Virus record (IMG/VR): IMGVR_UViG_3300028048_000120
Coordinates: 19,744 to 83,743 of that record
Strand: one strand, 5' to 3'
Source: a virus
Taxonomy: Duplodnaviria; Caudoviricetes
Length of the DNA: 64,000 nt
Of this stretch, positions 2,448 through 18,112 are shown piece by piece. The position numbers and the translations under genes are program-made. The first letter of the stretch is position 1; each line of letters opens with the position of its first letter. Under the pieces are notes generated by a model. It was not told the DNA's origin. It did no database searches and was given only the letters and a program-made list of their open reading frames with translations.

Positions 2448-3556
2448 GCATAGTAACGAACAAATTCTTCATCAGCGCAGTAGATGACGGAAGTACGATG
2501 ACGGCTACGTTATCCAAAAATATGGCGCTATCACAATCCTATTCGCCTAATAATGGTGGAGTATGGATGCCTAACTTCACGACTGATAGTCCTATACTGA
2601 CTCCATACATTCTTAAAGGAGCTACAAGAGTGCAGCCAACGACGCAGAATTGGTATTGCAATGGAATTCTTTTGGAATTCGATACTACGACAAAGAAATG
2701 TACAACACCAAGATATGTAAACGTATTTCAACTTATCACTGATGCAAACGGATACGAATGCCTTAAAATAATTGACAACCTTGCCAAACCGGGTAACCTC
2801 GATGCGGATAGCATCATGCTGAAAGGTACAGTAGAATTTAACGGAGCACAGGTAGAATTTGCCGTGAGAGAGACTATCATGCTGACAGAAGTACAAGGTA
2901 ACGGATATTCTTCGACTTTTACTTTTAGCCCAAGCAATACGATTACTGAGCGAGGCCAGACAATAACGATAACAGGAAAGCTATATGCCAACGGAGCTGA
3001 ATATACAGGAAATTATGACTGCAATTGGTATCTCAATGATTCATCAACTGTTTCCGCAACAGGAAAGACACTCACTCTACAGGAAGCCAATGTGGTGGAC
3101 TATGTCGTAATAAAATGTGAATTTATAATAGTAGGTACGGAGAGAACTAAGGTGTTGACAAGCTATACCTCTGTAGATGATGCCAGCGATAATGACCAGA
3201 TGCAAGTATCGTGCAATATCAGAGGGCAGGGAACTAACAATGGTAACTCGGCAACATTGCACGCTGATCAGATAGCTGATATTAAGTTTTGGATGGCTTA
3301 CGAGACGAACAAGGCTATAGGATCGAATAATAAATTCACGACGTATTCCGTGAAATTGTTCAACACAAAGATGGAGAGCAATATCGGTGCTCAGTCAATA
3401 AACACTATCGTGCTTGGTAGTGATGGATCTGATGGCTACAAGAATGTGACAACGACAGATAGTGATACAGGTGTACCTATAGGAAGTCTATCCGTATCTT
3501 ATGATAACGTGATACAATGTGGAGGTAACATAAGTGGAATTTTAAAAGCACAATAA
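2444..3556 (+). CDS. Putative tail structural protein (Ig-like domains)
   Basis: 370-aa beta-rich ORF with NWY motifs; stop overlaps the tail-fibre start. Confidence 0.5.
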   Translation: MSIVTNKFFISAVDDGSTMTATLSKNMALSQSYSPNNGGVWMPNFTTDSPILTPYILKGATRVQPTTQNWYCNGILLEFDTTTKKCTTPRYVNVFQLITDANGYECLKIIDNLAKPGNLDADSIMLKGTVEFNGAQVEFAVRETIMLTEVQGNGYSSTFTFSPSNTITERGQTITITGKLYANGAEYTGNYDCNWYLNDSSTVSATGKTLTLQEANVVDYVVIKCEFIIVGTERTKVLTSYTSVDDASDNDQMQVSCNIRGQGTNNGNSATLHADQIADIKFWMAYETNKAIGSNNKFTTYSVKLFNTKMESNIGAQSINTIVLGSDGSDGYKNVTTTDSDTGVPIGSLSVSYDNVIQCGGNISGILKAQ

Positions 3557-5742
3557 TGAAAAAGACGGTAACAGGCACTTTCAGCGTAACGGCAGTCAAA
3601 GACGGTGCCAAAGGAGACAAAGGAGACAAGGGTGATCAAGGTATCCGTGGCTTGCAGGGCTTGCAAGGCGAGAAAGGCGACCAAGGAATCCAAGGTCCGA
3701 AGGGCGAGAAAGGCGACACTGGTGCTGCTGGTAAGGATGGCGTGAGCACCTACTTCCATATTGCATACGCTGACAATGCAACAGGCGGAGGGTTTTCTCA
3801 GAACCCAACCGGAAAGAATTATATCGGCACGTATGTAGACCATACGGCCACGGACTCCACGAACCCCTCTGCCTACAAATGGCAGCTTGTAAAAGGTGCG
3901 CAAGGCGAGAAGGGTGACAAGGGTATTCCCGGCACGAACGGAAACGACGGAAAGACTTCATATTTGCATATTGCCTATGCTAACTCGGCAGACGGAAAGA
4001 CCGGGTTCGATGTTAGCAACAGCACGGGAAAACTCTATATTGGCCAGTATGTTGATTTCACAGAATCGGATTCCAACGACCCGACGAAATACTCTTGGAC
4101 GAAGATAAAGGGAGACAAAGGAGACACTCCACCAATGTATTCTTTAGAAGCATCTTCGGGAAATAATGATATTGGAAATGATTCTCATATCGCATGTAAC
4201 GGGCAAATATTACAAACGGCAATCGGACGTGGACATTGGTGTTATTTCATTACAGGCGGGACTAATCCTGTCGTAGCATTCTCAAGGAATTATGATACAT
4301 GGGGAACGCCATCATTGGCAACGGACTTGGCAAATTTTCTAACAGGTGACGAAGCTGCTGCGTACGCTAATGGCGTATTGGTGATTGTCGGATATGACGC
4401 AATATCGGTAAACGATGATTTACGGCAAGCATTGAGGAGCTATGGCTATGGAGGGGAAAACCTACTGTATAATGTAGGGCCAACAAGAGAATCTTTTGTC
4501 TTCATCGGACAAAAAGGTATGACAGAAGGAACTGCGTATTACAAAATGTCGAAAAACACGAAAGTAAGTCTTACGGCATCTGTTTCAAATGGGGTTCTTA
4601 TCGGTATGGGCCATAAAGGTGACAAGGGCGATACCGGTAGCACAGGGCCTATTATGTACAATGCAGGAACATGGTCTAGCAATACGCAGTATACCAATAA
4701 CGGGAAGGCTACCCCTATGGTGATGACAGAATCCTCTAGTGGTGGTATCACCTCACGTAATTACTGGTATCTTCCTAATGTCGGATCTAGTACCAATCAA
4801 GATCCAAGAAATGGAGCACCATGGGAAGAGGTAACAGGATATGCTGCACTCTTTGCAGAAATGGCCATCATTAACGGAGGTACTCTCAATGATGCAGTGT
4901 TCAAGGACGGATGGATGTTCAGCAAGGCAGGAAGATATATGAGTAACGAAAGTTACGTCTATACAACATATAACGATACCAACTGGACGAATTTTGACCC
5001 AACTGTATATAACAGCTCGGATGAGGCTTTATGGAGGCCACTTGTAGCTATAGACTTCAGAAATGGAAAGGCTTATTATACCGATTCAATTAATGCCACA
5101 GGAGGAGAGTTTAATGGTAATTTTTCCGCTTATAGAAATCGTATCATATTAGGGAAAATCAAAGCCAACTCTTATGCTGACTCAGATTTGTATGGGATTC
5201 GTTTCAGTGACTCTCATGAAACAGAATGTGGATCTATTGATCAATTTACAGATTCTAATGTATCACAATGCGCTTTAACTTTAACAGCAAACGATTATTC
5301 CTCATCAAGCCCTCAGGAAATTGGCAGACTTGATATAGTACCTACAACTGGTATAGCGCACACAGCATCAGGTTCGTTTTCTCTCTTGCAGAATTGGAGT
5401 ATTGGAAAATATGGAGACTGTCTCGGATTAAAATCGAGTACACTTGTAATTCGTTCTTCAGATTCCTTCGATATAACATCAGGAGATAGTGGGACATTCT
5501 ACGTTTTTGACAATGACCATGATTTAACCATTAATCTTCCAGAAGAATCACTTGACGGATTCACATTTGAGTTTAAGGCAATAAATCACCCAATAAATTT
5601 GAAAGTAAAAAATAATTCACATAGAATCGTTTTCCAAGACGCAGCACATAGCAATAGAACAGAACATAGAATAGAAGATTCTGTTCCACGTAAATATATC
5701 TACGTACGAGGTAGATGGTTTGAAATGAGTTATCATCATTAA
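3556..5742 (+). CDS. Tail fibre / host-specificity protein with collagen repeats, two antireceptor-type repeats and an ILEI-like domain
   Basis: GxY runs (GDKGDKGDQG); two HIAYA...YIG.Y.D...DS..P..Y.W...KG repeats; VLVIVGYDA...ALRSYG...RESFVFIGQKG resembles ILEI/PANDER. Confidence 0.8.
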   Translation: MKKTVTGTFSVTAVKDGAKGDKGDKGDQGIRGLQGLQGEKGDQGIQGPKGEKGDTGAAGKDGVSTYFHIAYADNATGGGFSQNPTGKNYIGTYVDHTATDSTNPSAYKWQLVKGAQGEKGDKGIPGTNGNDGKTSYLHIAYANSADGKTGFDVSNSTGKLYIGQYVDFTESDSNDPTKYSWTKIKGDKGDTPPMYSLEASSGNNDIGNDSHIACNGQILQTAIGRGHWCYFITGGTNPVVAFSRNYDTWGTPSLATDLANFLTGDEAAAYANGVLVIVGYDAISVNDDLRQALRSYGYGGENLLYNVGPTRESFVFIGQKGMTEGTAYYKMSKNTKVSLTASVSNGVLIGMGHKGDKGDTGSTGPIMYNAGTWSSNTQYTNNGKATPMVMTESSSGGITSRNYWYLPNVGSSTNQDPRNGAPWEEVTGYAALFAEMAIINGGTLNDAVFKDGWMFSKAGRYMSNESYVYTTYNDTNWTNFDPTVYNSSDEALWRPLVAIDFRNGKAYYTDSINATGGEFNGNFSAYRNRIILGKIKANSYADSDLYGIRFSDSHETECGSIDQFTDSNVSQCALTLTANDYSSSSPQEIGRLDIVPTTGIAHTASGSFSLLQNWSIGKYGDCLGLKSSTLVIRSSDSFDITSGDSGTFYVFDNDHDLTINLPEESLDGFTFEFKAINHPINLKVKNNSHRIVFQDAAHSNRTEHRIEDSVPRKYIYVRGRWFEMSYHH

Positions 5743-5757
5743 TTAAAAAATACAATT

Positions 5758-6315
5758 ATGACAGCAACAACGAATTTAAGTGCAGCGCTCAAGACAATAG
5801 ATGCTGCAGTAGAACATAACGAGACACCTTCAGACGGCTTATATGTAGAACTTCACAATGCTGATGGCAGTATAGCCTGCAAGAGCACCTTGACGGAGTT
5901 TCTGGCCAGTGCTGCAAAAGCTATATTATCTACCAATACGCTGTCTACAGCAACAAAGATAGCTGCTGTAGACGGAAATACATTCGGTGGAATAGACGGA
6001 AATAATCTCGCAACACTTATGGCGGGGAAATGGAAATACCTTTATTTAAATAAAGGTCAAACGTATTATCCATTAGAAAAAGGAATTTATGTATTGCATG
6101 AATTATCAAATGGAGAATATCATATATTTATTGCATCAGGATGGCTTTTTGGATCAAATAAGATATTTGGTTCTGGAGCATATATAAGATATAGTGAGCA
6201 AGATGACAACAATAACTATGGAATGGTCATCTTGCCAGGCACAAGTGAAGATAAACGATTAAGAATATCTGCACATATGAACACCCAATTGCAATTCAAA
6301 CTTTTGGCATTCTAG
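5758..6315 (+). CDS. Small putative receptor-binding protein with switchable C-terminus (expressed allele A)
   Basis: 185 aa directly after the tail fibre; residues up to MAGK are duplicated on the opposite strand at 6578-6756. Confidence 0.65.
   Translation: MTATTNLSAALKTIDAAVEHNETPSDGLYVELHNADGSIACKSTLTEFLASAAKAILSTNTLSTATKIAAVDGNTFGGIDGNNLATLMAGKWKYLYLNKGQTYYPLEKGIYVLHELSNGEYHIFIASGWLFGSNKIFGSGAYIRYSEQDDNNNYGMVILPGTSEDKRLRISAHMNTQLQFKLLAF
5853..6031 (+). repeat. Left arm of perfect 179-bp inverted repeat
   Basis: Base-by-base match to the reverse complement of 6578-6756 (tcacaatgctgatgg...atggcggggaaat). Confidence 0.97.
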
Positions 6316-6756
6316 ATGATTGATAATTGTCTACATAGAATTTCAGAATTTCTTTTGTTTTCTACATTAGCAACTCCTCTATTGATGGTAAGTGATATAT
6401 ACAACCCTTGGAGTTGCTCTTGTATGGAAGTACTAATTATAACATAAGAACTATAAAGTATTTCCACAATGGCATAATTTTGCCCCCCATCGAACAACAT
6501 CATCAGTAGCCCATACGTAGCGTTTGGTATTACAGCAGATTCTTTTCCCGGTATTCTTACGAATGTAGAAGGTTGTAATTTCCCCGCCATAAGTGTTGCG
6601 AGATTATTTCCGTCTATTCCACCGAATGTATTTCCGTCTACAGCAGCTATCTTTGTTGCTGTAGACAGCGTATTGGTAGATAATATAGCTTTTGCAGCAC
6701 TGGCCAGAAACTCCGTCAAGGTGCTCTTGCAGGCTATACTGCCATCAGCATTGTGA
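6312..6756 (-). other. Silent alternative C-terminal cassette (allele B) for the 5758 gene
   Basis: In-frame repeat (HNADG...LMAGK) followed by a different 88-aa C-terminus (LQPSTF...QLSII). It lacks the N-terminal 32 aa; the ORF caller start at 6770 is a TTG outside the repeat. Confidence 0.75.
6578..6756 (-). repeat. Right arm of perfect 179-bp inverted repeat
   Basis: Reverse complement is identical to 5853-6031. Confidence 0.97.
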
Positions 6757-6826
6757 GAAATAAGGGCCAATTATTAAAAATATTTAAAATTACCAATTAA
6801 AGAGAACAATTTACTGATATGTGATA

Positions 6827-6834
6827 TATATTTG
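6827..6834 (+). promoter_or_regulatory. Bacteroidota primary-sigma -7 element (TATATTTG)
   Basis: Matches TAnnTTTG just upstream of the 6846 gene; no clear -33 box. Confidence 0.55.
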
Positions 6835-6845
6835 CGTATATAATA

Positions 6846-7298
6846 ATGTGTAACTTAATAATCAAAAAATATTTTATAATGACAAGATTAAGAGATCATG
6901 AACCTACGCTCCTACAGAAAGAACGTATGAAACTGGAAACACGCTATCTTACTTTTTCGATTTCAATTTTTCACGCCATCTATGTACTCAACTTGGTATC
7001 TAACGGACTACCTCCAAGATGCCCCGATTTTGGTTCTATACTTGTGTATATGGCATTACTTCTCATCAACATACATTTATATGATGAGAGTAAGTGCTAT
7101 TACTATTGTTACTGGCATAGACACCCAATATTGTTCTCTATATATTATGAGATAACGAGGATATTATTCTCGCTTGGAATCATTAAATGGGATGTTGTAA
7201 CATGGAATAGTATAGACGTTATAATGTTAGCAGCAATATACGTAACATGGGTAGTTGGATATATGGCTCATAGCCACTTAATAATCAGGATAAGATGA
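6846..7298 (+). CDS. Multi-pass membrane protein (module gene 1); start may be 6879
   Basis: Several hydrophobic segments; C..HR motif (CYWHR) shared with 41208-41600 (CSYHR). Confidence 0.65.
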   Translation: MCNLIIKKYFIMTRLRDHEPTLLQKERMKLETRYLTFSISIFHAIYVLNLVSNGLPPRCPDFGSILVYMALLLINIHLYDESKCYYYCYWHRHPILFSIYYEITRILFSLGIIKWDVVTWNSIDVIMLAAIYVTWVVGYMAHSHLIIRIR

Positions 7299-7600
7299 GT
7301 AGGAAGAGCATAGTTGTGAAGATGTTGAGAACCCTTGCTGACAATATAGAGAATGGCGAACAAAGTAAATATAATTCAAATCTTACGGATGACGAGATAG
7401 ATATTCTACTGAATGATTATGCGAGAATGAATGACGAGAAATTAAACAAAGTACATGCGTGTAGGTTTTTGAACATGAGTCGTGCAACATTTGACAGACG
7501 TATAGCAGAGGGAAAGATACCGAGAGGTAAGAAAGAAGCAGGATGGAAGGAACTGTACTGGTCTAAGCGAGAACTTGAGCAACTTATTACTCACGATTAA
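7295..7600 (+). CDS. AlpA/excisionase-like HTH DNA-binding protein (module gene 2)
   Basis: ACRFLNMSRATFDRRIAEGKIPRG...WKELYW; clear homologue at 40854-41147. Confidence 0.75.
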   Translation: MSRKSIVVKMLRTLADNIENGEQSKYNSNLTDDEIDILLNDYARMNDEKLNKVHACRFLNMSRATFDRRIAEGKIPRGKKEAGWKELYWSKRELEQLITHD

Positions 7601-7662
7601 TTCTATAGATACCATATATTTCAACGGTTTGAGCATTGTTTCCGCTCGGGCCGTTTTTTATT

Positions 7663-7670
7663 TACTTTTG
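7663..7670 (+). promoter_or_regulatory. -7 element TACTTTTG
   Basis: TAnnTTTG about 45 nt upstream of ATG 7715. Confidence 0.5.
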
Positions 7671-7714
7671 GCATGTAACGTTACGACATGTTTAACCTTT
7701 TAAAAACCAAAAGT

Positions 7715-8368
7715 ATGGACGGAAACAACCTTTCTTATGCTGATTTTGCTGCCATGGCCAATAATGGTGCCAATGGTCAGTGGAATAATCCATTCATCTA
7801 CTTGTTGTGGATGATGTTCTTTGGTGGTGGTGGCTTCGGGTTCAGAGGTAACGGACCAGGCGTTGGACCTCAGGTGCAGAATCTGCAAGATCTTATCCAA
7901 GACAACCACAACAGTGATTTGACGATGCAGGCTATTAACGGCAACACCGCTGCAATAACCCAGCTAGCCAACCTTCTGAACACTAGCACGGATAACATCA
8001 CGGCAGCTATAAACGCTATGTCACAGAACATGCAGAATAATTGCTGCCAAGTGAAGAGTGCTATCTTGGAGCAGGGTTATCAAAATCAACTAGCGAACTG
8101 TCAGCAGACAAACACCATCTTGCAGCAGGCGCAAGCATTACAGAATTCTATCACTAACGGGTTCACACAGATAGGATTCCAGTTGGAGCGCAATGCATGT
8201 GATGTAAAGCAGACTTCTACAGAAAACACACAGAGAATTATTGACACCCTAAACAGCCACTGGACATCAGAGCAACAGGGTATTATCAACTCTCTGAACG
8301 CAAAGGTAGCGAGCATGGAGCAGACACAAGCTATTATCTCTGCGCTTAAGCCTGCAGCAACCACTTAA
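7715..8368 (+). CDS. Gly-rich/TM + Cys-Cys coiled-coil protein of unknown function (module gene 3); ORF caller start 7688
   Basis: FIYLLWMMFFGGGGFG hydrophobic segment, QAING, NNCCQ, LANCQQTN; homologous to 38946-39872. Confidence 0.75.
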   Translation: MDGNNLSYADFAAMANNGANGQWNNPFIYLLWMMFFGGGGFGFRGNGPGVGPQVQNLQDLIQDNHNSDLTMQAINGNTAAITQLANLLNTSTDNITAAINAMSQNMQNNCCQVKSAILEQGYQNQLANCQQTNTILQQAQALQNSITNGFTQIGFQLERNACDVKQTSTENTQRIIDTLNSHWTSEQQGIINSLNAKVASMEQTQAIISALKPAATT

Positions 8369-8441
8369 CAAGAGTATTTTATTTCCATCTCGATTGGCTG
8401 CACATAAGGAGTTATATCCAATATCATATGGATATTGATAC

Positions 8442-8449
8442 TATCTTTG
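8442..8449 (+). promoter_or_regulatory. -7 element TATCTTTG embedded in a long inverted repeat
   Basis: TAnnTTTG 36 nt upstream of ATG 8485. Confidence 0.5.
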
Positions 8450-8484
8450 TGCAGCCATGTAAGTATAATCAACATATAAGAACT

Positions 8485-8730
8485 ATGGCAAGTATAACGG
8501 ACACAATAGAGAAAATTATGATAGAGCATAAGGAGAACAACAATGATAAGTTACAGGAACAGTTGATGAGGCTTAAAGAGGAACTCCATGAGACCGTGCA
8601 ATGCCTTGACAACTGTCTTCAAGCTCTACGCCGAATACGCTTGCGCATTAAAGATAAAGGCTATGAAGAAGGAATGGAACGAGATAAGGGAGAGAATCCT
8701 GAAGGATCAGAGCGAAGAAGATTTGCGTAA
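8485..8730 (+). CDS. Small charged helical protein (module gene 4); ORF caller start 8428
   Basis: ATG 8485 lies downstream of the -7 box at 8442; weakly resembles 37847-38047. Confidence 0.5.
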   Translation: MASITDTIEKIMIEHKENNNDKLQEQLMRLKEELHETVQCLDNCLQALRRIRLRIKDKGYEEGMERDKGENPEGSERRRFA

Positions 8731-9151
8731 GATGCTGGGTGCCGTCATGGACGTCATGGAGGCACATTGGACGGAAGACAAGCAATTCGACTTCATGAAA
8801 AGAGTCCATTACAGAATGTATGGAGGACACTACGACGAATTCCTAGCCATGCAACAGGTAAGGCACATGTATTGGGAAGACGATAACAGTAACATTCATT
8901 ACGTTACTCCACTACCTCTAGAACAGGTAAGAACGATATACCAGCGAGTATACAATAGGTTGAAATATAAGACCTACAATATGTATGACTTCTATGTGGA
9001 ACTGCACAGAATCAAGTCTGACAGATATCCTAAGGCTACGGACATCACGGACGAGATGATTCAGGACACCATCGTATCGCTCAATGATCCTGACAACCCA
9101 TTTGGGCTGGAAAGAGTTTGGGGATATTTTAACTCTGAAATTAAGAAATAG
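8663..9151 (+). CDS. Conserved helical phage protein (module gene 5); ORF caller start 8588
   Basis: HYDEFLAMQQVRHMY / LEQV / YDFYVELHRIKSD / LNDPD pattern is collinear with 37378-37794. Confidence 0.7.
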   Translation: MKKEWNEIRERILKDQSEEDLRKMLGAVMDVMEAHWTEDKQFDFMKRVHYRMYGGHYDEFLAMQQVRHMYWEDDNSNIHYVTPLPLEQVRTIYQRVYNRLKYKTYNMYDFYVELHRIKSDRYPKATDITDEMIQDTIVSLNDPDNPFGLERVWGYFNSEIKK

Positions 9152-9153
9152 AT

Positions 9154-9627
9154 ATGAATGACATTAAGAGTCTCTTGGTATGGGGTGGAGGAGCATTACT
9201 TACAATGCTCTCACCCATTAAGGATTTTATGCTGGCCGTGATGATCCTTTTTATTTTAGATTTCACGTTCGGTGTAATAGCCGACAAGTTCAATGGCGAG
9301 AAATGGGAATGGGACAAAGCAAAGAACTTTTTCAAGAATGTGTTCTACTGCTGCGTTATCATCGTATCCCTGTTCGTGATAGGCTATTTCCTGCACGAGG
9401 CAGTTGCAGCGGAATATGCGGTTAAGACATTCTGCCTAGCTGCATTCGTCATTTTCTTTACGAAGATTGTCAAGAACTGGAGGAAATGCCTAGTACCGGG
9501 TACGGAATGGTATAAGCTAGCCGACTTCCTGTATTATCTATTGAGCTTCAGTATTGTAGACCGACTAAAGGTATACAAGGATTACCAGAAGTTCAAGGAA
9601 GATAACGGAAAGGAGGAAAAGAAATGA
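9154..9627 (+). CDS. Holin
   Basis: Three hydrophobic segments and a basic C-tail, immediately upstream of the endolysin. Confidence 0.75.
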   Translation: MNDIKSLLVWGGGALLTMLSPIKDFMLAVMILFILDFTFGVIADKFNGEKWEWDKAKNFFKNVFYCCVIIVSLFVIGYFLHEAVAAEYAVKTFCLAAFVIFFTKIVKNWRKCLVPGTEWYKLADFLYYLLSFSIVDRLKVYKDYQKFKEDNGKEEKK

Positions 9628-10055
9628 ACCCAAGCAAGACCCTTATAGATCACATAAAACAGGCGGAAGGTTTCAGTGAGAAAGCATACTGGGACCAAGA
9701 CGGAGGTGTGTGGACGATTGGATACGGGCATACTAGATCTGTGAAAAGAGGAGATGTAGTATCGAAGTCGGAAGCGGAGAGGCTCATCGTATCTGACTTA
9801 AAGAATGTAACAGCGTACCTCAGCACCATAAAAGAGATAAATACCCAAGGCAAGTTTGATGCCTGTGCAGATTTCTGTTTTAATATCGGCACGGGAGCCT
9901 TTAAATCATCTACACTACTGAAGTTGATAAAAACCGGTGCTCCTGACAAGGATATACAAGCACAATTCCGCAGATGGGTGTATTCAGGAGGAAAGAAGTT
10001 ACCAGGATTAGTAACAAGAAGAGGATGGGAGGCAAAGAGATGGGCAGAACGATGA
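9624..10055 (+). CDS. Endolysin, GH24 (T4/lambda-RrrD-like) lysozyme
   Basis: AEGFSEKAYWDQDGGVWTIGYGHT (E-D-T catalytic triad pattern), FCFNIGTGAF, GLVTRR. Confidence 0.92.
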   Translation: MNPSKTLIDHIKQAEGFSEKAYWDQDGGVWTIGYGHTRSVKRGDVVSKSEAERLIVSDLKNVTAYLSTIKEINTQGKFDACADFCFNIGTGAFKSSTLLKLIKTGAPDKDIQAQFRRWVYSGGKKLPGLVTRRGWEAKRWAER

Positions 10056-10519
10056 TTGCAATAATTGTAACTGTAATGTTGTGCGGTTGCAAGACCTACG
10101 TACCTGTTGAGAGAGTGCATAACACAACAGATACACTATATATAGAAAAGCACGACACATTGCGTGTTGAGGCTAAGCATACCGAAATGAGCGACAAAGT
10201 TGCCGAACGGGAACATATACGCAGAGACAGTGTATATATGGTAGTTGATGAGGCTGGAAATGTAAAGAAGACATACGAATACCACTATCTTGGAGACAAG
10301 CAACTGGAAAGACAAATCCTTGCGCTTAGAGATAGCGTGAATTACTATAAGATGCTGAGTGAATATCTTGCGGAGAAGAATACAGATCACCAGCAAGACC
10401 GAGTGGTGGAAAAGTTATCTATATGGAGTATGTTTAAGCCATGGATGCTTATTCCACTTTTAATTACATTTATAGCAGCAGTATACCTATTAATAAGGAA
10501 TTTCATAATACATAAATAG
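10040..10519 (+). CDS. Putative unimolecular spanin (lipoprotein + C-terminal TM)
   Basis: Signal with lipobox-like VMLCGC, periplasmic helical part, C-terminal hydrophobic helix WMLIPLLITFIAAVYLLI; third gene of the lysis cassette. Confidence 0.7.
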   Translation: MGRTMIAIIVTVMLCGCKTYVPVERVHNTTDTLYIEKHDTLRVEAKHTEMSDKVAEREHIRRDSVYMVVDEAGNVKKTYEYHYLGDKQLERQILALRDSVNYYKMLSEYLAEKNTDHQQDRVVEKLSIWSMFKPWMLIPLLITFIAAVYLLIRNFIIHK

Positions 10520-10528
10520 GTTTCTTTT

Positions 10529-10557
10529 CCGGCTGTCACCGTTATTGGGGCAGCCGG
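10529..10557. terminator. Bidirectional intrinsic terminator between lysis cassette and repressor
   Basis: ccggctgtc...ggcagccgg stem followed by a T-rich run, between convergent genes. Confidence 0.75.
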
Positions 10558-10564
10558 TTTTCTT

Positions 10565-10924
10565 TTACTTTTTGGCCCTACTTGTCAAAATGTCTATAAG
10601 ATTATCTACCTGTTGTTCCTTCTTTTTATAATTCTCTTGTAGCTCTTCTAGCTTATGCTGCAACACCTGAACAACGCTTTCATCACTGCACTCGTCAGCA
10701 TCGATAAACATACTTCCTTCTCCACGCATGAGCCATTCGGCTGACAAATCAGGATATGAGGATAAAAGAGCCTCTATAAATTCATAAGATGGATTTCTTA
10801 TACCACGCATGTAGTTATTGACGGAGTTCTGAGGCAATCCAATTTTATGAGCAAGAGAAGTTTGTGAAATGTCTAATGCATGTAAAAACGCTGTAAGTCG
10901 CTGATGTACACTACTTTCCTTCAT
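10565..10924 (-). CDS. XRE/cI-like phage repressor
   Basis: ISQTSLAHKIGLPQNSVNNYMRGIRNPS HTH; SAEWLMRGEGSMF; divergent from cro-like gene. Confidence 0.85.
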   Translation of the reverse strand: MKESSVHQRLTAFLHALDISQTSLAHKIGLPQNSVNNYMRGIRNPSYEFIEALLSSYPDLSAEWLMRGEGSMFIDADECSDESVVQVLQHKLEELQENYKKKEQQVDNLIDILTSRAKK

Positions 10925-10981
10925 TTTGTTATTAATATTGTGTCTAAATAATCACGTTTGTAGAAAATAATCCCAAAATTG

Positions 10982-11013
10982 TTTGGAAGTTACTCAAAAT
11001 GTGATTATCTTTG
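10982..11013 (+). promoter_or_regulatory. Rightward (lytic) promoter: TTTG-N20-TATCTTTG
   Basis: Full Bacteroidota consensus with -33 at 10982-10985 and -7 at 11006-11013. Confidence 0.75.
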
Positions 11014-11055
11014 CACTGTGATTGATTAATTAATATTGCCTAATGTTGTTGGGCA

Positions 11056-11063
11056 CAAAGATA
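11056..11063 (-). promoter_or_regulatory. Leftward -7 element TATCTTTG (candidate repressor promoter)
   Basis: Plus-strand caaagata; points toward cI and faces the rightward promoter. Confidence 0.5.
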
Positions 11064-11089
11064 ATAAAATTTTTTAAAACAAGCAGAAG

Positions 11090-11290
11090 ATGAACGCAAA
11101 AAATGTAAACAACAAATCTCTAACACAGACAATAAGAGATCTGGAGCTTGGACAGAAGATATTCTACCCATTAGAGAGATTCAACAGTGTTCGCAGCATC
11201 TGCTGCACAATAGCATATACTTTGCGAAAGAAGTATAAAACTTCTGTAGACAGGGAGAACGGAACAATCTCTGTAACAAGAATTAAATAG
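11090..11290 (+). CDS. Cro-like small DNA-binding protein
   Basis: 66 aa, basic, first gene divergent from cI. Confidence 0.5.
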   Translation: MNAKNVNNKSLTQTIRDLELGQKIFYPLERFNSVRSICCTIAYTLRKKYKTSVDRENGTISVTRIK

Positions 11291-11296
11291 AATGCC

Positions 11297-11608
11297 ATGA
11301 CACAGCCACAGCAATTATATGTCCTAACGGGCGAACAATTGAACACATTTGTTACGGAATTAGCCGATAAGGTTACTGAACAAGTTGTAAGAAAACTTCG
11401 CCCACAGTACATGACAAGAAAAGAAGTAGCAGCCAAGCTACATGTAGTTCAATCTACAATTATCAACTGGGTGGATGCTGGTTTGATTCAAGAATACCGT
11501 ATTGCCGGTAAGGTATTGTATGATCCGGTAGAGGTGGAATCGCAGATTCGCTCAGGCAAGGTAAAAACTAAGCCAAAGAAACTGGCTGGTAAAACATTTA
11601 TAATTTGA
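11297..11608 (+). CDS. Excisionase-like HTH protein
   Basis: YMTRKEVAAKLHVVQSTIINWVDAGLIQEYRIAGKVLY (HTH_17/MerR-like pattern). Confidence 0.75.
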   Translation: MTQPQQLYVLTGEQLNTFVTELADKVTEQVVRKLRPQYMTRKEVAAKLHVVQSTIINWVDAGLIQEYRIAGKVLYDPVEVESQIRSGKVKTKPKKLAGKTFII

Positions 11609-11829
11609 AGAAGATGAAAAATATCAAGAACATATTGAAGGTAATGGCGCTAGGCGCTTTCCTTCTTGCGACATTAGGTATCATCGGTAACGATGAGCAC
11701 TATGAACAAGTGGCTTACTCTATGGGGTATGAAAAATATCAAGAGATATCTAATCAATTGAAATCTGAGAATGGCAAGATACCTACAAGAGAACAAGTAG
11801 TGGATAGGTATCTTAAGATGAATAGATAG
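11605..11829 (+). CDS. Hypothetical protein with N-terminal TM/signal (ATG probably 11614)
   Basis: Basic N-terminus plus hydrophobic stretch. Confidence 0.55.
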   Translation: MKKMKNIKNILKVMALGAFLLATLGIIGNDEHYEQVAYSMGYEKYQEISNQLKSENGKIPTREQVVDRYLKMNR

Positions 11830-12069
11830 TTAAACTTCTAAATATTACCAATTACAAGTTATATATGTTTATGGCAAGTTAGTATGTCTGTGAAGACAAA
11901 AATCTTAGAGAGTGATATTTTTGTATGATCCACTAAGGGCACAGCGGTGCCCAATTCGCCGAATGGGCACAAGGCGCCCTGATGCAAAGGTTGTCGTGAG
12001 ACAAATTTTCTATTCGCTAATTTTTCATGATATGATTTTAATTTTGCTAACTGTTGGTTTAGGTGTTAA

Positions 12070-12077
12070 TAATTTTG
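12070..12077 (+). promoter_or_regulatory. -7 element TAATTTTG (a second copy at 12039-12046)
   Basis: Tandem TAnnTTTG boxes upstream of the replication gene. Confidence 0.45.
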
Positions 12078-12304
12078 CATCAACTGGTTCGATCCCGAAT
12101 TCGGCACTAAAATAAATTAATAAAATATAAGACTAAGACAATGAAGTTTGGAAATCAAGAAAAAGAGCTAGTGTTAACAATATCTAGTTTGTACGCATCA
12201 CTCTATCAGATATGCGGTACAGATTCTACAACAGAGTTTGAATCTAAAGTTAGATCAATTCATCTGCTAAGCCTTAAATTGAATAGACTAAGGAGGAATT
12301 CTAT

Positions 12305-12943
12305 ATGAAAGGTTGGATAATTATACCAAGAGACATTCTTGATGAGAAGGTCTTCAAGAAGTCGAACGTATTCAATGTATTCATCAATTTGCTCATGAGA
12401 GCATCATGGTCAGATCATGAATATAATGGCGTGCAACTTAAAGAAGGTCAAGTAGTTACGACGCTAAATCAGATAGCAGAATGGTGCAATTTGAGTATGC
12501 AAAACGTGAGGACTGTGTTACTAACATTGAAACTAACAAACCTTTTAACCAAGGAGTCAACCCACCAAAACACAACTATAACTATCTGTAATTATGGAAG
12601 TTACAAACTTGGGGATTTGGAAACCGAACAACCTTCTAACAAACGAGCTAACAATGTTACTAACAAACATAAAAAAGAAAAGATTAATAAAGAAGAGATT
12701 ATAAAAAAGAAAATAAATAAAAGAAAAAAAGACGAAGATTCGATAACGAAACTCATAGAGCGAGAACATAATCGAGTTCTGAACAAGAGTAAAAAAGTCG
12801 AATCTGAAGTCAACAGGATAGAAGATATGATTAAGTTCGTAGAAGCAAATCCTGACTCAACGGCAGCAGGAGCGTTGAGGAATCTGAAGGCTAGCGGTAG
12901 ACTTAAGGAGCTAGGCATTAATTGGTCTGATCAAAAAAATTAA
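12305..12943 (+). CDS. Phage replication initiator / replisome organiser
   Basis: KGWIIIPR...FINLLMRA...LKEGQVVTT winged-helix N-terminus plus low-complexity basic linker. Confidence 0.7.
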   Translation: MKGWIIIPRDILDEKVFKKSNVFNVFINLLMRASWSDHEYNGVQLKEGQVVTTLNQIAEWCNLSMQNVRTVLLTLKLTNLLTKESTHQNTTITICNYGSYKLGDLETEQPSNKRANNVTNKHKKEKINKEEIIKKKINKRKKDEDSITKLIEREHNRVLNKSKKVESEVNRIEDMIKFVEANPDSTAAGALRNLKASGRLKELGINWSDQKN

Positions 12944-12968
12944 GTTAAACCAGGTAAAACAACGAATC

Positions 12969-13586
12969 ATGATATACGAAAACTTAAATAAACGCTCTGT
13001 AAGCGACCAAAACGATAGTAGTCGAGTAACTATAGCCGAGCTGAGAGAAATCCTCTCAGACGGAAAGAAAAGCGGCTCAAACAGAAAAGTACAACACGAG
13101 AGAGACCTACAGATACAATGTGTATCATGGTTCAGGATGAAATATCCCGCCTTTTCAATGTTGCTTTTCCATCCTGCTAATGAGACCTCGGAAGGAGTGA
13201 AGAAACTCCGGATGAGAGCAGCAGAGGGAGTTGTTGCAGGAGTATGTGATCTGATTCTCGCTATTCCATCGTCATGGCCTGTAGGAACAGACAGATACGA
13301 CAAATACGGCAAGGAGATCATTGATATGCTTGAATACAGATCTCTTGGTATTGAAATGAAATTCGGCAAGACCAACAATCAGTCGGCAAAGCAGAAGCTG
13401 TTTGAGCAGTATTACCAGGCAGCCGGAAACAGATACTGCGTATGTCGCAATTTTGACGACTTCAAGAATGCTGTTGACGAGTGGATGACGCACGTACCTA
13501 ACGGCATCAAGGCTGCGATAAAGTCAATATACAGCGCACCTGATGATTACAACAAACAATTGCTCATGCGCATAGCTAAAAAATAG
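12969..13586 (+). CDS. VRR-NUC domain nuclease
   Basis: ERDLQIQCVSWFR...FHPANE...GVVAGVCDLIL...IEMKFG...QSAKQK (PD-(D/E)xK). Confidence 0.85.
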   Translation: MIYENLNKRSVSDQNDSSRVTIAELREILSDGKKSGSNRKVQHERDLQIQCVSWFRMKYPAFSMLLFHPANETSEGVKKLRMRAAEGVVAGVCDLILAIPSSWPVGTDRYDKYGKEIIDMLEYRSLGIEMKFGKTNNQSAKQKLFEQYYQAAGNRYCVCRNFDDFKNAVDEWMTHVPNGIKAAIKSIYSAPDDYNKQLLMRIAKK

Positions 13587-13591
13587 ATACC

Positions 13592-13777
13592 ATGGATAAA
13601 TTTGAAAAATTTTCTTTAAGCATCATCGCCAGCCTGACTTTGTCTGTGTTGGGCATCGGAATGGCGATAGACAATTGCGATTTACGCTTCAATATTGGGT
13701 TTATGATCGGCATGATAATAGGCATCCCCAGTTTTATTTGGTTCATCGTGACGTGGAATTCTGGAAAGGAGGACTGA
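13592..13777 (+). CDS. Small two-TM hypothetical protein
   Basis: Two hydrophobic helices; operon context. Confidence 0.5.
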   Translation: MDKFEKFSLSIIASLTLSVLGIGMAIDNCDLRFNIGFMIGMIIGIPSFIWFIVTWNSGKED

Positions 13778-13780
13778 GAT

Positions 13781-14323
13781 ATGGATGCAAATGAATTCAA
13801 AAAGACGGTGTACGACATGAGATGCTACGAGAGAGCATATTTTCGTGGCAGAAACGTGAAAGCACTGAATGCCGTGAATAGATTCAGGAAGTATCTGTCG
13901 GAAGAGATTGAGCGCATAAGGAAAGTTATTCCTGCGGATAAGGAAATCACGGATAATCCCGATTATGATTTTTTCTGTGTTGTGGAAGAAATGTTGAGGC
14001 TCACAGGAAAGTATCTCTCAATGAAGAAACATGGCGGATATGACGGCATATCGATGAATGCCGTCATAAAAGATCTATCGAAAAAAGAGAAGGCCGTTGA
14101 CGGAATACTGGAGAGATGGAATAAGCAAAAGCAAAAGGAAACAGGCAAAGTGACGAAGTACAAGGTTGTGATGTCTGGAATACTTGGTACCGGATGTGTG
14201 TATGAGAGCTTCGACAGATCACTTGTAATCTCAGAATACTACTCACGTCAGCAATTTGCCGTAGATGGTACCCACTTCAATATGGCTAGCGAAGAGATCC
14301 CCCTTGAAGATCTCAAAAAATAG
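13781..14323 (+). CDS. Hypothetical protein
   Basis: 180-aa ORF in operon. Confidence 0.6.
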   Translation: MDANEFKKTVYDMRCYERAYFRGRNVKALNAVNRFRKYLSEEIERIRKVIPADKEITDNPDYDFFCVVEEMLRLTGKYLSMKKHGGYDGISMNAVIKDLSKKEKAVDGILERWNKQKQKETGKVTKYKVVMSGILGTGCVYESFDRSLVISEYYSRQQFAVDGTHFNMASEEIPLEDLKK

Positions 14324-14480
14324 CAATTATTTTCTAACCCAGATGACGACCCACCGTGGCAACGTGCAGTGAGACTCTGCAGGATTTTCTATTATTGTGT
14401 GGCGGGAATCGTAAAAATAGTGTGAGAAAGAGGTTATCAACTTCCCGTCACGCTTTAATGGAAAAACGTAAATAAAAATC

Positions 14481-15023
14481 ATGAAAAAATGGAAGATAGC
14501 AATACATAGAATGTTGTTCCCGAATCTGCATAAGAGAAGGGTTCTCTTCATGGATCTTGACGATACGCTGATAGTGACAATAAGTGGGAAAACATTTCCC
14601 GTAGATGAATATGACTGGGAATTTAAGCCTGGCATATTGGATTCCATAGTTAATTACAGACCTACATGGATACACATTGTGACTAATCAAGGAGGTATCG
14701 CAGCTGGATATATAGACGAAGAAAAGTTTTTGCAAAAGATGGGCAATATTTTGTTTCAGCTTAAGAAAGACACTTGGACAGAAGATTCTTTTGAAATGTG
14801 TACCTCTCTTGACAGGACTGACAAATTCAGAAAGCCCAATCCTGGCATGGTCAACAGATTTATTACGATACACAACCTGGCAAGTGATGAATGTCTTATG
14901 GTAGGAGATGCAAGCGGAAAGTTTGGAGACTTCTCGGATAGCGACAAGGAATGCGCCAGGAGAGCAGGAATAAAATATATGGACGTAGATGATTTTATAG
15001 AGAAATATGGGAAGAAAAATTAA
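14481..15023 (+). CDS. HAD-IIIA phosphatase (PNKP 3'-phosphatase/GmhB-like)
   Basis: FMDLDDTL (DxD), IVTNQGG, RKPNPGM, MVGD...SDSD motifs. Confidence 0.85.
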   Translation: MKKWKIAIHRMLFPNLHKRRVLFMDLDDTLIVTISGKTFPVDEYDWEFKPGILDSIVNYRPTWIHIVTNQGGIAAGYIDEEKFLQKMGNILFQLKKDTWTEDSFEMCTSLDRTDKFRKPNPGMVNRFITIHNLASDECLMVGDASGKFGDFSDSDKECARRAGIKYMDVDDFIEKYGKKN

Positions 15024-15741
15024 GTTAACGGGAGAACAGGCAAAAGAGCTTATATCAGAAGCAGCAAAGAGTTATGACAAGATTCTTGCATCAATGTACT
15101 CGATAGTATGCGTAATAAATGATGTTGCTAACTGTCTGATGGTAGACACATATGCAGAGCTTAAGAAGAGTAAGTACTATAAGCAGAGTGTGAAGAAAAA
15201 CGCAAATCTTGCCATGAATACATACAACATGTGGTGTAAAAAGAGAATCGAAGAACTCGATGATAGAGCGTGTCTATGGATGGATCTTGCCAATGCCGTA
15301 GCGGATGGTGTAAGCCCACATATCGATAGATGGAGATATGCGATGGAACTTTGTCTCCAACGTCACAAGGTAGAAGATGCTCACTTGAAGGCGATGATCA
15401 TGGTAACCTCAAGCATGCTCGAATATGCGTCTGTCTTCTATGATAGATTTATTGATGGTATGAAAAATGGAGCATTCCAGGTAAAGTTCATTAAGAAGGA
15501 GTTCCGAGAATTCAAAATAGATAATGTCTATAAGGCATGGAAAAAGGTAAAAAATGCTATCTGCATACAACCTGAAGACGATGAAATAGACCTCAACAAG
15601 GACGAGATGGTATGCTTAGGATATGATGTTGTTGATCGATATCTAACAGATGCGGATAACTTTAATATGGCAGCCGAAACGGCGATTAGTTATAACAAAG
15701 AAATTGCAGAAAAATATGAGAAGAGACATAAATATGAATAG
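15007..15741 (+). CDS. Hypothetical protein
   Basis: 244-aa helical ORF overlapping the upstream gene. Confidence 0.6.
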   Translation: MGRKIKLTGEQAKELISEAAKSYDKILASMYSIVCVINDVANCLMVDTYAELKKSKYYKQSVKKNANLAMNTYNMWCKKRIEELDDRACLWMDLANAVADGVSPHIDRWRYAMELCLQRHKVEDAHLKAMIMVTSSMLEYASVFYDRFIDGMKNGAFQVKFIKKEFREFKIDNVYKAWKKVKNAICIQPEDDEIDLNKDEMVCLGYDVVDRYLTDADNFNMAAETAISYNKEIAEKYEKRHKYE

Positions 15742-15766
15742 AGATATTTGATGGAGTAGTAAAAAG

Positions 15767-16075
15767 ATGGATAGAATTACCAGAATGAAGATGGAAAAAT
15801 ATTTTATAGACACAGAGAGCAGTAGTATAGCTACAGATATGCAGAAGGAGTTCAGAGAGGCAGTGATGAAGAGATATAATCACATTGTGACAGATAACAT
15901 CGATGCCGTATGGGATGGTGTAAAAAAGATATCTCATGAACTGAAAGAAAAATATAATACTTTGTCGGTCATTCAGACTGACGATCACATATTTTGGATG
16001 AATTGTCATATGGACAGCTTTTCGATGAGACTTATAGCGAAACAAATTAAAAGAGCAGAAAATGAAGAAATATGA
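15767..16075 (+). CDS. Hypothetical protein
   Basis: 102-aa ORF in operon. Confidence 0.5.
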   Translation: MDRITRMKMEKYFIDTESSSIATDMQKEFREAVMKRYNHIVTDNIDAVWDGVKKISHELKEKYNTLSVIQTDDHIFWMNCHMDSFSMRLIAKQIKRAENEEI

Positions 16076-16394
16076 ATTTGACAAGAACGGGGAATGTTTG
16101 AATCCTGATATTATATCATCCGAGCTACAGCAGGAAGATGGAAGTAGAGTTACATGGGAAATAGAAGTTGCTGAGGCTCCTAATGGATGGGTAGCAGGAA
16201 TGAAGTGGAGGAATAAGGGAGAATTTGATGTTTGGAGATATCCATGCTCTCTGAAAAATGATAAATATCCATCTCGCCGTAAGGCTGTGATAGTGGCAGC
16301 AAGGAAACTCCTTAAAATAAAATATCTCCCTGATCATGAATGGCTAAAGAAATTAATATTCAAAGAGAAACAATTGAATCTGTTCGATGACTGA
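16062..16394 (+). CDS. Hypothetical protein
   Basis: 110-aa ORF ending in QLNLFDD. Confidence 0.55.
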   Translation: MKKYEFDKNGECLNPDIISSELQQEDGSRVTWEIEVAEAPNGWVAGMKWRNKGEFDVWRYPCSLKNDKYPSRRKAVIVAARKLLKIKYLPDHEWLKKLIFKEKQLNLFDD

Positions 16395-16521
16395 CCGGAA
16401 GAAGCACATAGAATGTAGATATTCCGTGAATTGTATTAACGGATTATATTGTAGGAGGCTTAGCAAATATATTGAATATGGTGATATAGATTGTGCTGAG
16501 GCTGATAAAGAGAAAAAGTAA
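16387..16521 (+). CDS. Small Cys-rich protein (not in ORF track)
   Basis: 44-aa ORF MTDRKKHIECRYSVNCINGLYCRR... with four Cys; overlaps the upstream stop. Confidence 0.4.
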   Translation: MTDRKKHIECRYSVNCINGLYCRRLSKYIEYGDIDCAEADKEKK

Positions 16522-16684
16522 AATAATATTAAAGAGAATCGAATATGGAATATTTTATTTTAGGTGCTTTGCTGCTCCTTGATTTGGTCAGCATAGTTCT
16601 ATTAATTAAGAGTATGTTTAACGGTTTTAACTATTAAAAAAGAAAATTGCAGAACTATATAAGGGAAGAAAGGAGGGAAAGGAA

Positions 16685-17089
16685 ATGAATAGAATCCTAG
16701 AAAAGATTAAAAAGAGGATAGACGAAATACAGAGTGATTGCCTTGATGATCACTACAATTTCAAGAATTCTCATAATGAAGGTGTTTTTGAAGGATTATC
16801 AAAGTTGGAGTCCTATATTGAAAGTCTTGAGACAGATATTGATGTGAAAGAATGGAAAGATGCACAAGGTAAGGACCTACCAGATATTAATAGAGAAGTA
16901 ATCGCCTTGGAACAAGATAAAAACGGCTATATGAAGGTAGTATTTGCTCATAGGCCAAATCCTGATGGATGGAATGGAAAGAATATTGATACAGGTAAGG
17001 TTACACGATATTATCCTAAGACTTATGGCAAGGGTGGTTGGAATATACCTAACCTCAAGTATTGGTTAGATTATCCTCTACCAGAGTAA
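16685..17089 (+). CDS. Hypothetical protein
   Basis: 134-aa ORF; WNIPNLKYWLD C-terminal motif. Confidence 0.55.
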   Translation: MNRILEKIKKRIDEIQSDCLDDHYNFKNSHNEGVFEGLSKLESYIESLETDIDVKEWKDAQGKDLPDINREVIALEQDKNGYMKVVFAHRPNPDGWNGKNIDTGKVTRYYPKTYGKGGWNIPNLKYWLDYPLPE

Positions 17090-17112
17090 CTAAGAACTGA
17101 ATTGTTATAACT

Positions 17113-17406
17113 ATGAAGATATTACATTTAGTATTAAAGGCTCAATGGTATAATCTTATTGAACAAGGAGAAAAGAAAGAGGAATATCGTGATATTACTC
17201 CTTACTATGACAAGAGATTACGTAATGCTGATGGGAGTTTTAAGCACTACGATGCTGTCTGTTTACATTACGGTTATTCCTCAAAGACCATGACATATAA
17301 GGTCGAAGATGTATTTATTGGCGAAGGCGTTTCTTCTTGGGGAGCAGATCCAAACAAGAAATACTACGTTATTCAGTTAGGAAAGAAATTAAGGAGGAAT
17401 AAGTAA
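17113..17406 (+). CDS. ASCH/PUA-like domain protein
   Basis: LHLVLKAQWYNLIEQGEKKEEYR N-terminal ASCH signature. Confidence 0.75.
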   Translation: MKILHLVLKAQWYNLIEQGEKKEEYRDITPYYDKRLRNADGSFKHYDAVCLHYGYSSKTMTYKVEDVFIGEGVSSWGADPNKKYYVIQLGKKLRRNK

Positions 17407-17408
17407 CT

Positions 17409-17798
17409 ATGGATGAAATTAAATCATATAGTGACTTAAAACAGTCAAAGGTTCTTAGCAAGATATTATCAGATGAAAGTGCAGATATGTCTTGGGTTAG
17501 TAATGGTTTAGGCAAACCTTTTGCAAGAACAATACCAATTAAGGGAGACCCAGAAGAACTATGTGGCTGCTGGAGTCTTTCAGCATTGCTTAGTGTTTTA
17601 CCTCTTCATCTTATTGTCAATAATCAAAGGTATGCATTTAGTATGATAAAGGGTTTAGATAAAAATGGTGAAACCTATGCAATTAAATACGCTATATTTA
17701 ATACAACCTTTTATTTTCACCTAACAGATGCTTATGATAACCCAGTTGATGCTTGCTATGAAATTATATTAAAGTTAAACGAATTAAATTTGTTGTGA
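17409..17798 (+). CDS. Hypothetical protein
   Basis: WSLSALLSVLP...NPVDACYEIILKL pattern; operon context. Confidence 0.6.
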   Translation: MDEIKSYSDLKQSKVLSKILSDESADMSWVSNGLGKPFARTIPIKGDPEELCGCWSLSALLSVLPLHLIVNNQRYAFSMIKGLDKNGETYAIKYAIFNTTFYFHLTDAYDNPVDACYEIILKLNELNLL

Positions 17799-17986
17799 TT
17801 ATGAAATGGTTTATATTAATTATATGTACAATATGGATATTCTTAGGGTGTTATGCAAAACATGTCTATAAATCAAAATGTGTTCCACATAAGAGTGAAT
17901 TTGACTTTTTACTTGGAAGTATTTTTGCATCAATAGCAGACGGAATTGCATGGTATTGGTTATTTAAAGTAATAAAAATGTTGTGA
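17795..17986 (+). CDS. Small membrane protein
   Basis: Two hydrophobic segments. Confidence 0.45.
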   Translation: MIMKWFILIICTIWIFLGCYAKHVYKSKCVPHKSEFDFLLGSIFASIADGIAWYWLFKVIKML

Positions 17987-18112
17987 TTATGGAAGACCCA
18001 AATAAATATGTAGGCTCTGTCTTTGTATGGGAAGAGCAGAAAGTAAAAGAAATAATGCAAGATATTGTTAATTTTACAAAGCAAAGTGATAATAATATAA
18101 ACTGGAATAAAT

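Follow-up and report, generated by a model that had tools for sequence, protein, structure and literature searches.

The locus studied here lies within a 64-kb stretch of phage DNA (hereafter the window, i.e., bases 19744-83743 of an 83.7-kb IMG/VR record rated 88% complete), where a block of overlapping or abutting tail genes is closed by a gene for a protein of 185 aa (5758-6315, plus strand). This gene starts 15 nt past the stop codon of a collagen-like tail fibre gene (728 aa; 3556-5742, plus strand) that matches Pfam Collagen and BppU-like_C as well as PHROG tail fibre/host-range families, and whose PDB matches are limited to the collagen triple helix. According to the ORF list, repeat search and comparison of alignments and flanks, the 185-aa gene, which is the one taken to be expressed, consists of a unique N-terminal part (codons 1-32; 5758-5852, plus strand), which is present in single copy and lies outside the repeat, a constant part (codons 33-91; 5853-6031, plus strand) and a C-terminal cassette of 94 aa currently fused to the N-terminus (C1; 6032-6315, plus strand). 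The constant part is at the same time the left arm of an inverted repeat whose right arm is found at 6578-6756 (minus strand). The two arms are complementary at 179 of 179 positions (100%), enclose a spacer of 546 nt and are the sole inverted repeat of at least 35 nt in the whole window. Strain comparison divides the arm into a variable outer part of 67 nt (5853-5919, plus strand) and an invariant inner part of 112 nt (5920-6031), and within the latter there is a 9-N13-9 palindrome (5943-5973, with a second copy at 6636-6666), an unsupported candidate for a protein site.

The spacer also holds a second cassette of 88 aa in inverted orientation (C2; 6312-6577, minus strand), from which the full N-terminus is absent. 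C2 belongs to a 152-aa minus-strand ORF (6312-6770) that converges with the 185-aa ORF so that their stop codons overlap in a single CTAG, and that opens in the right flank with a TTG followed by four codons (6757-6770, minus strand); this TTG is probably not a true start. A TAnnTTTG-type -7 box at 6827-6834 (plus strand), outside the invertible DNA, precedes the next gene (6846-7298), and a search of the minus strand of the right flank for a Bacteroidetes -7 box facing the 152-aa ORF was negative. Because the box at 6827 faces the next gene and none faces the 152-aa ORF, C2 is presumably silent in the present orientation. When the core was inverted in silico, the reading frame was kept, aa 1-91 remained constant, the product was exactly 179 aa, and the reciprocal silent ORF became 158 aa, so that flipping the 546-nt core would swap the tip of the protein in frame. 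An initial annotation of this DNA had described perfect 179-nt arms, a 546-bp core, tail-to-tail termini of 94 and 88 aa and a 179-aa rather than a 185-aa product after inversion, and our recomputation agrees with it in every detail. Pairwise comparison of C1 and C2 gave no significant or detectable similarity, and multiple alignment shows a hairpin motif (G..Y..E...Y.I) common to both; no second copy of either cassette is present in the genome at the DNA or protein level. A perfect 20-nt palindrome also occurs at 6038-6057, 7 nt inside C1, which is unconserved in other C1 alleles and probably a chance occurrence.

Judging from its gene content, the source is a Bacteroides-type gut phage carrying crAss-like genes: its terminase is nearest to those of the Bacteroides phages BF1-TP2, BKO1-TP3 and BS-TP4 (37-39% identity), and its giant (RNA) polymerase and other large genes resemble those of crAss-like phages. 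GC content drops from ~42% to ~32% near 16 kb of the window (14000-18000; ~34-38 kb of the genome), with packaging and tail genes like those of the three Bacteroides phages on the high-GC side and the crAss-like polymerase and large genes on the low-GC side. We considered a chimeric contig at this shift and rejected it, because an independent contig (L012) crosses the shift with 100% identity over 6616-18077. The GC shift is a real mosaic at that point, and contiguity is supported up to 18077. Several other features of the surroundings were observed. The collagen-like repeats of the fibre gene (3600-4630) are rearranged and differ in length among close strains, giving products of 510-734 aa, while genes upstream of this region are 99-99.9% identical among the same strains. 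The membrane-protein gene at 6846-7298 has alleles of 150 aa and 139 aa that are ~20% divergent in strains otherwise almost identical, and the boundary of this allele mosaic is sharp and located at the promoter of the gene, just after a near-invariant flank. Opposite a cI-like HTH repressor gene (10565-10924, minus strand) is an early region that runs rightward and encodes a DnaD-like helicase loader (12305-12943, plus strand). This layout looks lambdoid, and an integrase was not found in the genome. The HTH gene at 7295-7600 (weak HTH_17/HTH_8 and excisionase-like matches) was examined as a switch-specific factor and dismissed since its conservation extends to relatives without the cassette.

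The 185-aa protein belongs to a tiny family. Nine homologues were identified (62-99% identity), all encoded at the same position in relatives. The protein has no match among Pfam or PHROG families or, by profile search, in the PDB, and in the ESM Atlas only unnamed phage and Bacteroidota clusters were matched. A profile search of 1.84 billion representatives recovered the members of the family itself plus weak matches in one 2843-aa protein, in which residues 100-128 match, weakly and repeatedly, the hairpin motif of prealbumin-like CarboxypepD_reg/SdrD_B repeats. AlphaFold2 models of the two forms have low confidence (mean pLDDT 52.6 and 38.5). Neither the locus nor the protein had a match in the INPHARED phage collection, and when IMG/VR and JGI contigs were scanned by pattern and by protein, no further relatives were found, although near relatives might lie outside this set. 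Considering that the gene follows the fibre gene and that C1 is hypervariable (see below), the two observations on which we base its function, we infer a receptor-binding or fibre-capping role for this putative tip protein. Its C-terminal domain would then bind the host receptor, and flipping would change adsorption specificity.

The inverted-repeat structure is real and was not created by an assembler. The same architecture is seen in an independently assembled contig (L001, sample ERZ27292086), whose arms are 98% alike, with three central mismatches. Because every k-mer of k=141 inside the repeat contains mismatch sites, the assembly of L001 is unambiguously phased, and because its arms are mismatched, the structure in it is not an assembler-made duplication, contrary to the concern raised in the initial annotation that one repeat arm could be an assembly artefact. 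The first base of L012 lies exactly 141 nt into the right arm, where a k141 assembler would be expected to break on meeting a true perfect repeat. The left flank, arm, C1 and C2 are covered by L013 and L014, and the right flank, arm and C2 by L015 and L017; junctions between arm and flank or between arm and cassette in the window orientation recur in these four contigs and L012, which come from several samples and different pipelines. L013 and L014, of which one is from JGI and the other a Logan k31 contig, cross the left arm with 100% identity to the window and share an end base at 6583, 6 nt into the right arm. These last six bases read ATTTCC, which on the opposite strand is GGAAAT, a hexamer found in tandem repeats where the left arm meets C1; the two contigs may derive from the same reads with a common coverage gap.

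The evolution of the arms was then traced by comparing genomes. The two arms of the window do not differ and those of L001 differ at 3 sites, whereas comparing orthologous arms between the two genomes gives 5-6 differences, four of them substitutions found in both arms of the same genome. Since independent evolution cannot yield four substitutions in both arms, this pattern indicates that the arms recombine with each other and undergo concerted evolution via gene conversion. Long, near-identical arms evolving in concert are what a homology-driven flip-flop would have, and they favour the homologous recombination option of the initial annotation over a dedicated invertase. The outer 67 nt vary at synonymous sites among strains (dS 0.25-0.47) with the two arms co-varying, and show 2-6 site differences between strains inside an otherwise near-identical block, in which C2 has 2-3 differences in 262 nt and the right flank 0-1 in 85 nt. 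The right arms of the window and L001 differ at 6 sites, as expected if the right arm was repeatedly converted from the left one. The outer end of the arm is not fixed: in L015 the arm is ~20 nt shorter and adjoins a different flank, and the flank at 6757-6770 is identical in L001, L005, L012 and L017 and different in L015. This variable boundary speaks against a crossover site there. The inner 112 nt are identical, synonymous sites included, in 14 arms of 13 contigs, while neighbouring segments have dS of 0.25-1.3; compared with the same segment in the cassette-less contigs L002 and L003, the inner arm shows 52-54 differences in 111 nt (47%).

We also examined C-terminal diversity in relatives, as the initial annotation had proposed, and found the expressed C1 to be hypervariable and the spare C2 nearly invariant. 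C1 has 25-65 differences per ~272 nt from other strains (9-24%) with dN/dS of 0.4-1.3, consistent with a hypervariable cassette that is partly under positive selection. By comparison, C2 shows 0-3 differences per ~263 nt among eight contigs, with an open frame in seven of them, and the right flank has 0-1 differences in 85 nt, while the next gene differs by 20%. Such invariance of C2 beside a hypervariable C1 is unexpected if both cassettes were expressed in turn under the same selection. In L015, a JGI contig, the G6 run of C2 (6483-6488, minus strand) has one G fewer, giving a -1 frameshift that truncates C2 (P0011); a silent copy may be decaying here, the tract may be prone to slippage, or the missing G may be a sequencing error. 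A diversity-generating retroelement behind the variability of C1 was considered and rejected: a six-frame HMM search of the whole record found no reverse transcriptase (PF00078), and a template repeat is absent as well.

Relatives differ in what they carry downstream of the gene. L003 and L004 are without a second cassette, and L002 holds a remnant only: a decayed outer right arm (L002:6637-6713; ~83% over 42 nt) lies beside the conserved right flank, and C2 and the inner arm are gone, with a hairpin-containing spacer in their place, which indicates that the L002 lineage has lost the cassette. L003 and L004 contain a direct copy of the upstream region and first 34 codons of the gene (L003:6569-6717 and L004:2323-2471; 39-aa ORF P0016), which ends within 8 nt of the position of the outer boundary of the arm and suggests that this boundary may be a recurrent recombination breakpoint. 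In our reading, a block comprising inner arm, C2 and flank was acquired once from a divergent homologue, that the inner-arm part of this block was then copied into the resident gene, and that the pair of arms was afterwards kept identical by recombination.

If the core inverts, contigs with the opposite arrangement might be present in other assemblies. The 179-aa alternative product that had been predicted by the initial annotation was indeed found as a called ORF (P0013) on two metagenome contigs from two samples (L008 and L009), 4 residues away from the in-silico flipped form; both contigs run from the left flank and arm into C2 and then into inverted C1. The other junction of the flipped form was detected on L005, where a 158-aa ORF (P0005) is composed of the right flank and arm and a C1-type cassette. 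L008 and L009 share a substitution in C2 that is absent from every contig of the other orientation. These three contigs are short-read MEGAHIT k141 contigs, and the perfect 179-nt repeat is beyond their phasing: because such a repeat leads to an identical k-mer graph in either orientation, k141 contigs cannot phase the arms, and for a contig of this kind to cross the repeat, two of the four junction chains must have been broken by chance. For this reason we rejected contig orientation as proof of inversion, and the phasing of L005, L008 and L009 across the repeat may be arbitrary. The arms of L008 are identical over the 133 nt that are visible, and the contig ends just before the shared k-mers. 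Approximately nine repeat-crossing contigs have the window orientation and three the flipped one, a tally compatible with random phasing, and the differences between L008 and L001 are explained more simply by one recombination patch, with no inversion needed. The flipped contigs are thus suggestive only of the existence of both orientations.

The initial annotation had reported no recombinase in the window and had proposed that the rest of the genome be searched for an invertase. Six-frame HMM searches of the whole 83.7-kb record gave no match at E<=1 for tyrosine recombinases (PF00589), serine recombinases (PF00239; control genomes were positive) or IS110/Piv-type recombinases (PF01548), which extends that absence to the entire record. 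Erf, RecT and RusA were likewise not found by six-frame HMM searches of the whole record, which is 88% complete. Regarding recombination sites, the rix site (TTCCCTAACCC) with at most two mismatches has seven matches in the window, a number below the shuffle mean, and none of them is at the locus; an Mpi-type motif is absent at the locus too. The 9-N13-9 palindrome has two matches in the arms versus none in shuffles. In 596 Gb of prokaryote genomes, it occurs in 34 copies versus ~43 expected by chance (our own estimate), scattered over many phyla and with no clustering in Bacteroidales.

Because the arms show arm-to-arm conversion, their outer boundary is variable, and the searches for recombinases and sites were negative, general homologous recombination appears to be the most likely driver of the cassette, and we would give it about an even chance; inversion would then result when the intermediates of arm-to-arm conversion are resolved as crossovers. 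Strand exchange between the 179-nt arms, by host RecA or linked to replication, would homogenize both arms through gene conversion, and resolution as a crossover would flip the 546-nt core, so that the N-terminus is fused in frame with either C1, giving 185 aa, or C2, giving 179 aa. We infer that crossovers would occur at a useful rate. In favour of this explanation we count the only long inverted repeat in 64 kb, its recurrence in L001 and the flipped-state ORFs P0013 and P0005, and against it the near-invariance of C2, the frameshifted copy in L015 and the absence of Erf, RecT and RusA from a record that is 88% complete. The fuller proposal, which we put forward tentatively as a possibility, is that in this phage with crAss-like genes, whose record contains no integrase or invertase, a recombinase-free flip-flop alternates two receptor-binding tips, a phase variation that would match the phase-variable surfaces of its Bacteroidales hosts, and that the arms are kept identical by the same recombination.

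It is also conceivable, if rather unlikely, that the cassette is a static relic, i.e., that a partial copy of a divergent homologue (inner arm and C2) was inserted in inverted orientation and the arms were occasionally converted, with inversion too rare to matter, C2 never expressed and the flipped contigs mis-phased. The 47% divergence of the inner arm from cassette-less relatives and the near-invariance of inner arm, C2 and right flank, as of a single recent acquisition, fit this explanation, as do a C2 that is undiversified and frameshifted in one copy, the loss of the cassette in relatives (a decayed remnant in L002, none in L003 and L004) and a 9:3 junction tally obtained from short-read contigs that cannot phase the repeat. 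However, perfect inverted repeats of 179 nt are recombination substrates when carried on replicating phage DNA, and the documented conversions arise from the same intermediates as crossovers. Moreover, C2 has remained open in 7/8 contigs, the stop codons are packed in one CTAG and the swap is exactly in frame, which is typical of working switches. Both flipped-form junctions were also seen in three assemblies, and the two contigs with the left junction come from different samples and have a lineage-specific SNP in common.

Alternatively, the inner 112 nt might be invariant because they contain a site recognized by a protein. Bacteroidales genomes are rich in trans-acting invertases, and site-specific inversion might be carried out in trans by such a host enzyme or by a phage enzyme from the missing ~12% of the genome, acting on a short site in the inner arm (for example, the 9-N13-9 palindrome) with the rest of the 179 nt being duplicated coding sequence. 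We consider this doubtful. The inner arm is invariant even at synonymous sites while its neighbours have dS of 0.25-1.3, it contains the palindrome, the record is 88% complete, and Mpi/Tsr families are enriched among gene-altering inversions (PMC9881135), all of which would agree with a recombinase acting in trans; but no recombinase is encoded in the 83.7 kb, Mpi-type and rix-type motifs are absent at the locus, and the palindrome occurs at approximately the chance rate in 596 Gb and is not concentrated in Bacteroidales. In addition, the invariance is not confined to the 112 nt but continues into C2 and the right flank, as would suit a young block that has spread recently better than a 30-bp site under constraint. 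That an assembler produced one of the arms, or the entire inverted cassette, as perfectly identical arms longer than typical k-mers or reads in a metagenome contig might suggest, is highly improbable given the same structure with three arm mismatches in L001, the window-orientation junctions recurring in five contigs across samples and pipelines, and the break of L012 exactly k nt into the arm, as a real repeat predicts.

Several characterized systems resemble this locus in part. The tail fibre inversions of Mu (G segment), P1 (C segment), e14 (P) and p15B (Min) use the serine invertases Gin, Cin, Pin and Min, respectively, and have an adjacent serine invertase gene, short crossover sites of ~26-34 bp and a Fis-dependent enhancer. 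In Mu and P1 the variable part also includes a chaperone gene, and the repeats of the P1 C segment are long, with the length beyond the site being duplicated coding sequence. The present locus is similar to these systems in having an N-terminal part that is constant and lies outside the invertible segment or at its edge, alternative C-termini placed tail to tail inside the segment, an in-frame swap of the C-terminus onto the constant part, as is characteristic of tail fibre switches, and a position at the end of the tail module. Unlike Mu, P1 and Min, it has no invertase in 83.7 kb, a coding repeat of 179 nt and an exchanged domain of only ~90 aa. Small exchangeable tips are known from the Rin shufflon of Bifidobacterium prophages (Mavrich et al. 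2018, PMC6109161), which has an adjacent tyrosine recombinase, 11-bp rix sites (TTCCCTAACCC) and 3-5 cassettes. Both loci encode a small receptor-binding protein (putatively so here) with a constant N-terminal part (168 aa in Rin and 91 aa here) and start-less, mutually dissimilar C-terminal cassettes (95-100 aa in Rin and 88-94 aa here), although a tyrosine recombinase and rix sites are absent here and there are two cassettes. Considering that Rin swaps tips of 95-100 aa on a constant part of 168 aa (PMC6109161), the description of the present protein as an unusually small receptor-binding protein in the initial annotation was overstated.

Gene-altering programmed inversions have been surveyed in bacterial genomes and prophages, where tail fibre genes and recombinase families are enriched (Milman et al. 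2023, PMC9881135). The architecture of that class, a full-length gene and an opposite partial copy with the inverted repeat inside the coding sequence, is found here as well, but in a phage record in which no integrase or other recombinase was found and with a long repeat. Inversions of the pneumococcal SpnIII (ivr) hsdS locus persist without the dedicated recombinase (PMC6620402), and 30-kb isomers of cyanophages involve inverted repeats of 400-700 nt and are possibly recombinase-independent (bioRxiv 10.64898/2026.02.14.705889). Both share with the present locus long inverted repeats for which no dedicated recombinase would be needed, and we count them as precedents in favour of a homology-driven flip. 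However, SpnIII is a bacterial restriction-specificity locus, and in the cyanophages a 30-kb genome segment is flipped and coding sequence is not recombined; moreover, coexisting isomers have been shown experimentally in both, whereas the present case is known from contig sequences alone. The literature that we searched reports no switch of this type for either crAss-like or Bacteroides phages. The architecture is that of known tail fibre inversion switches, and on our best reading the locus would be a homology-driven form of these, with long repeats and no adjacent recombinase.

Bacteroidales escape crAss-like and other gut phages via phase-varying capsules and surface proteins (PMC8375218). 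If our proposal is true, a two-state switch of the tip protein, encoded by a small and sharply bounded cassette locus, would be a direct counter-strategy on the side of the phage and would bear on the persistence of virulent phages in the gut. If the switch runs on general recombination, such switches would escape searches based on recombinase genes or short repeats.
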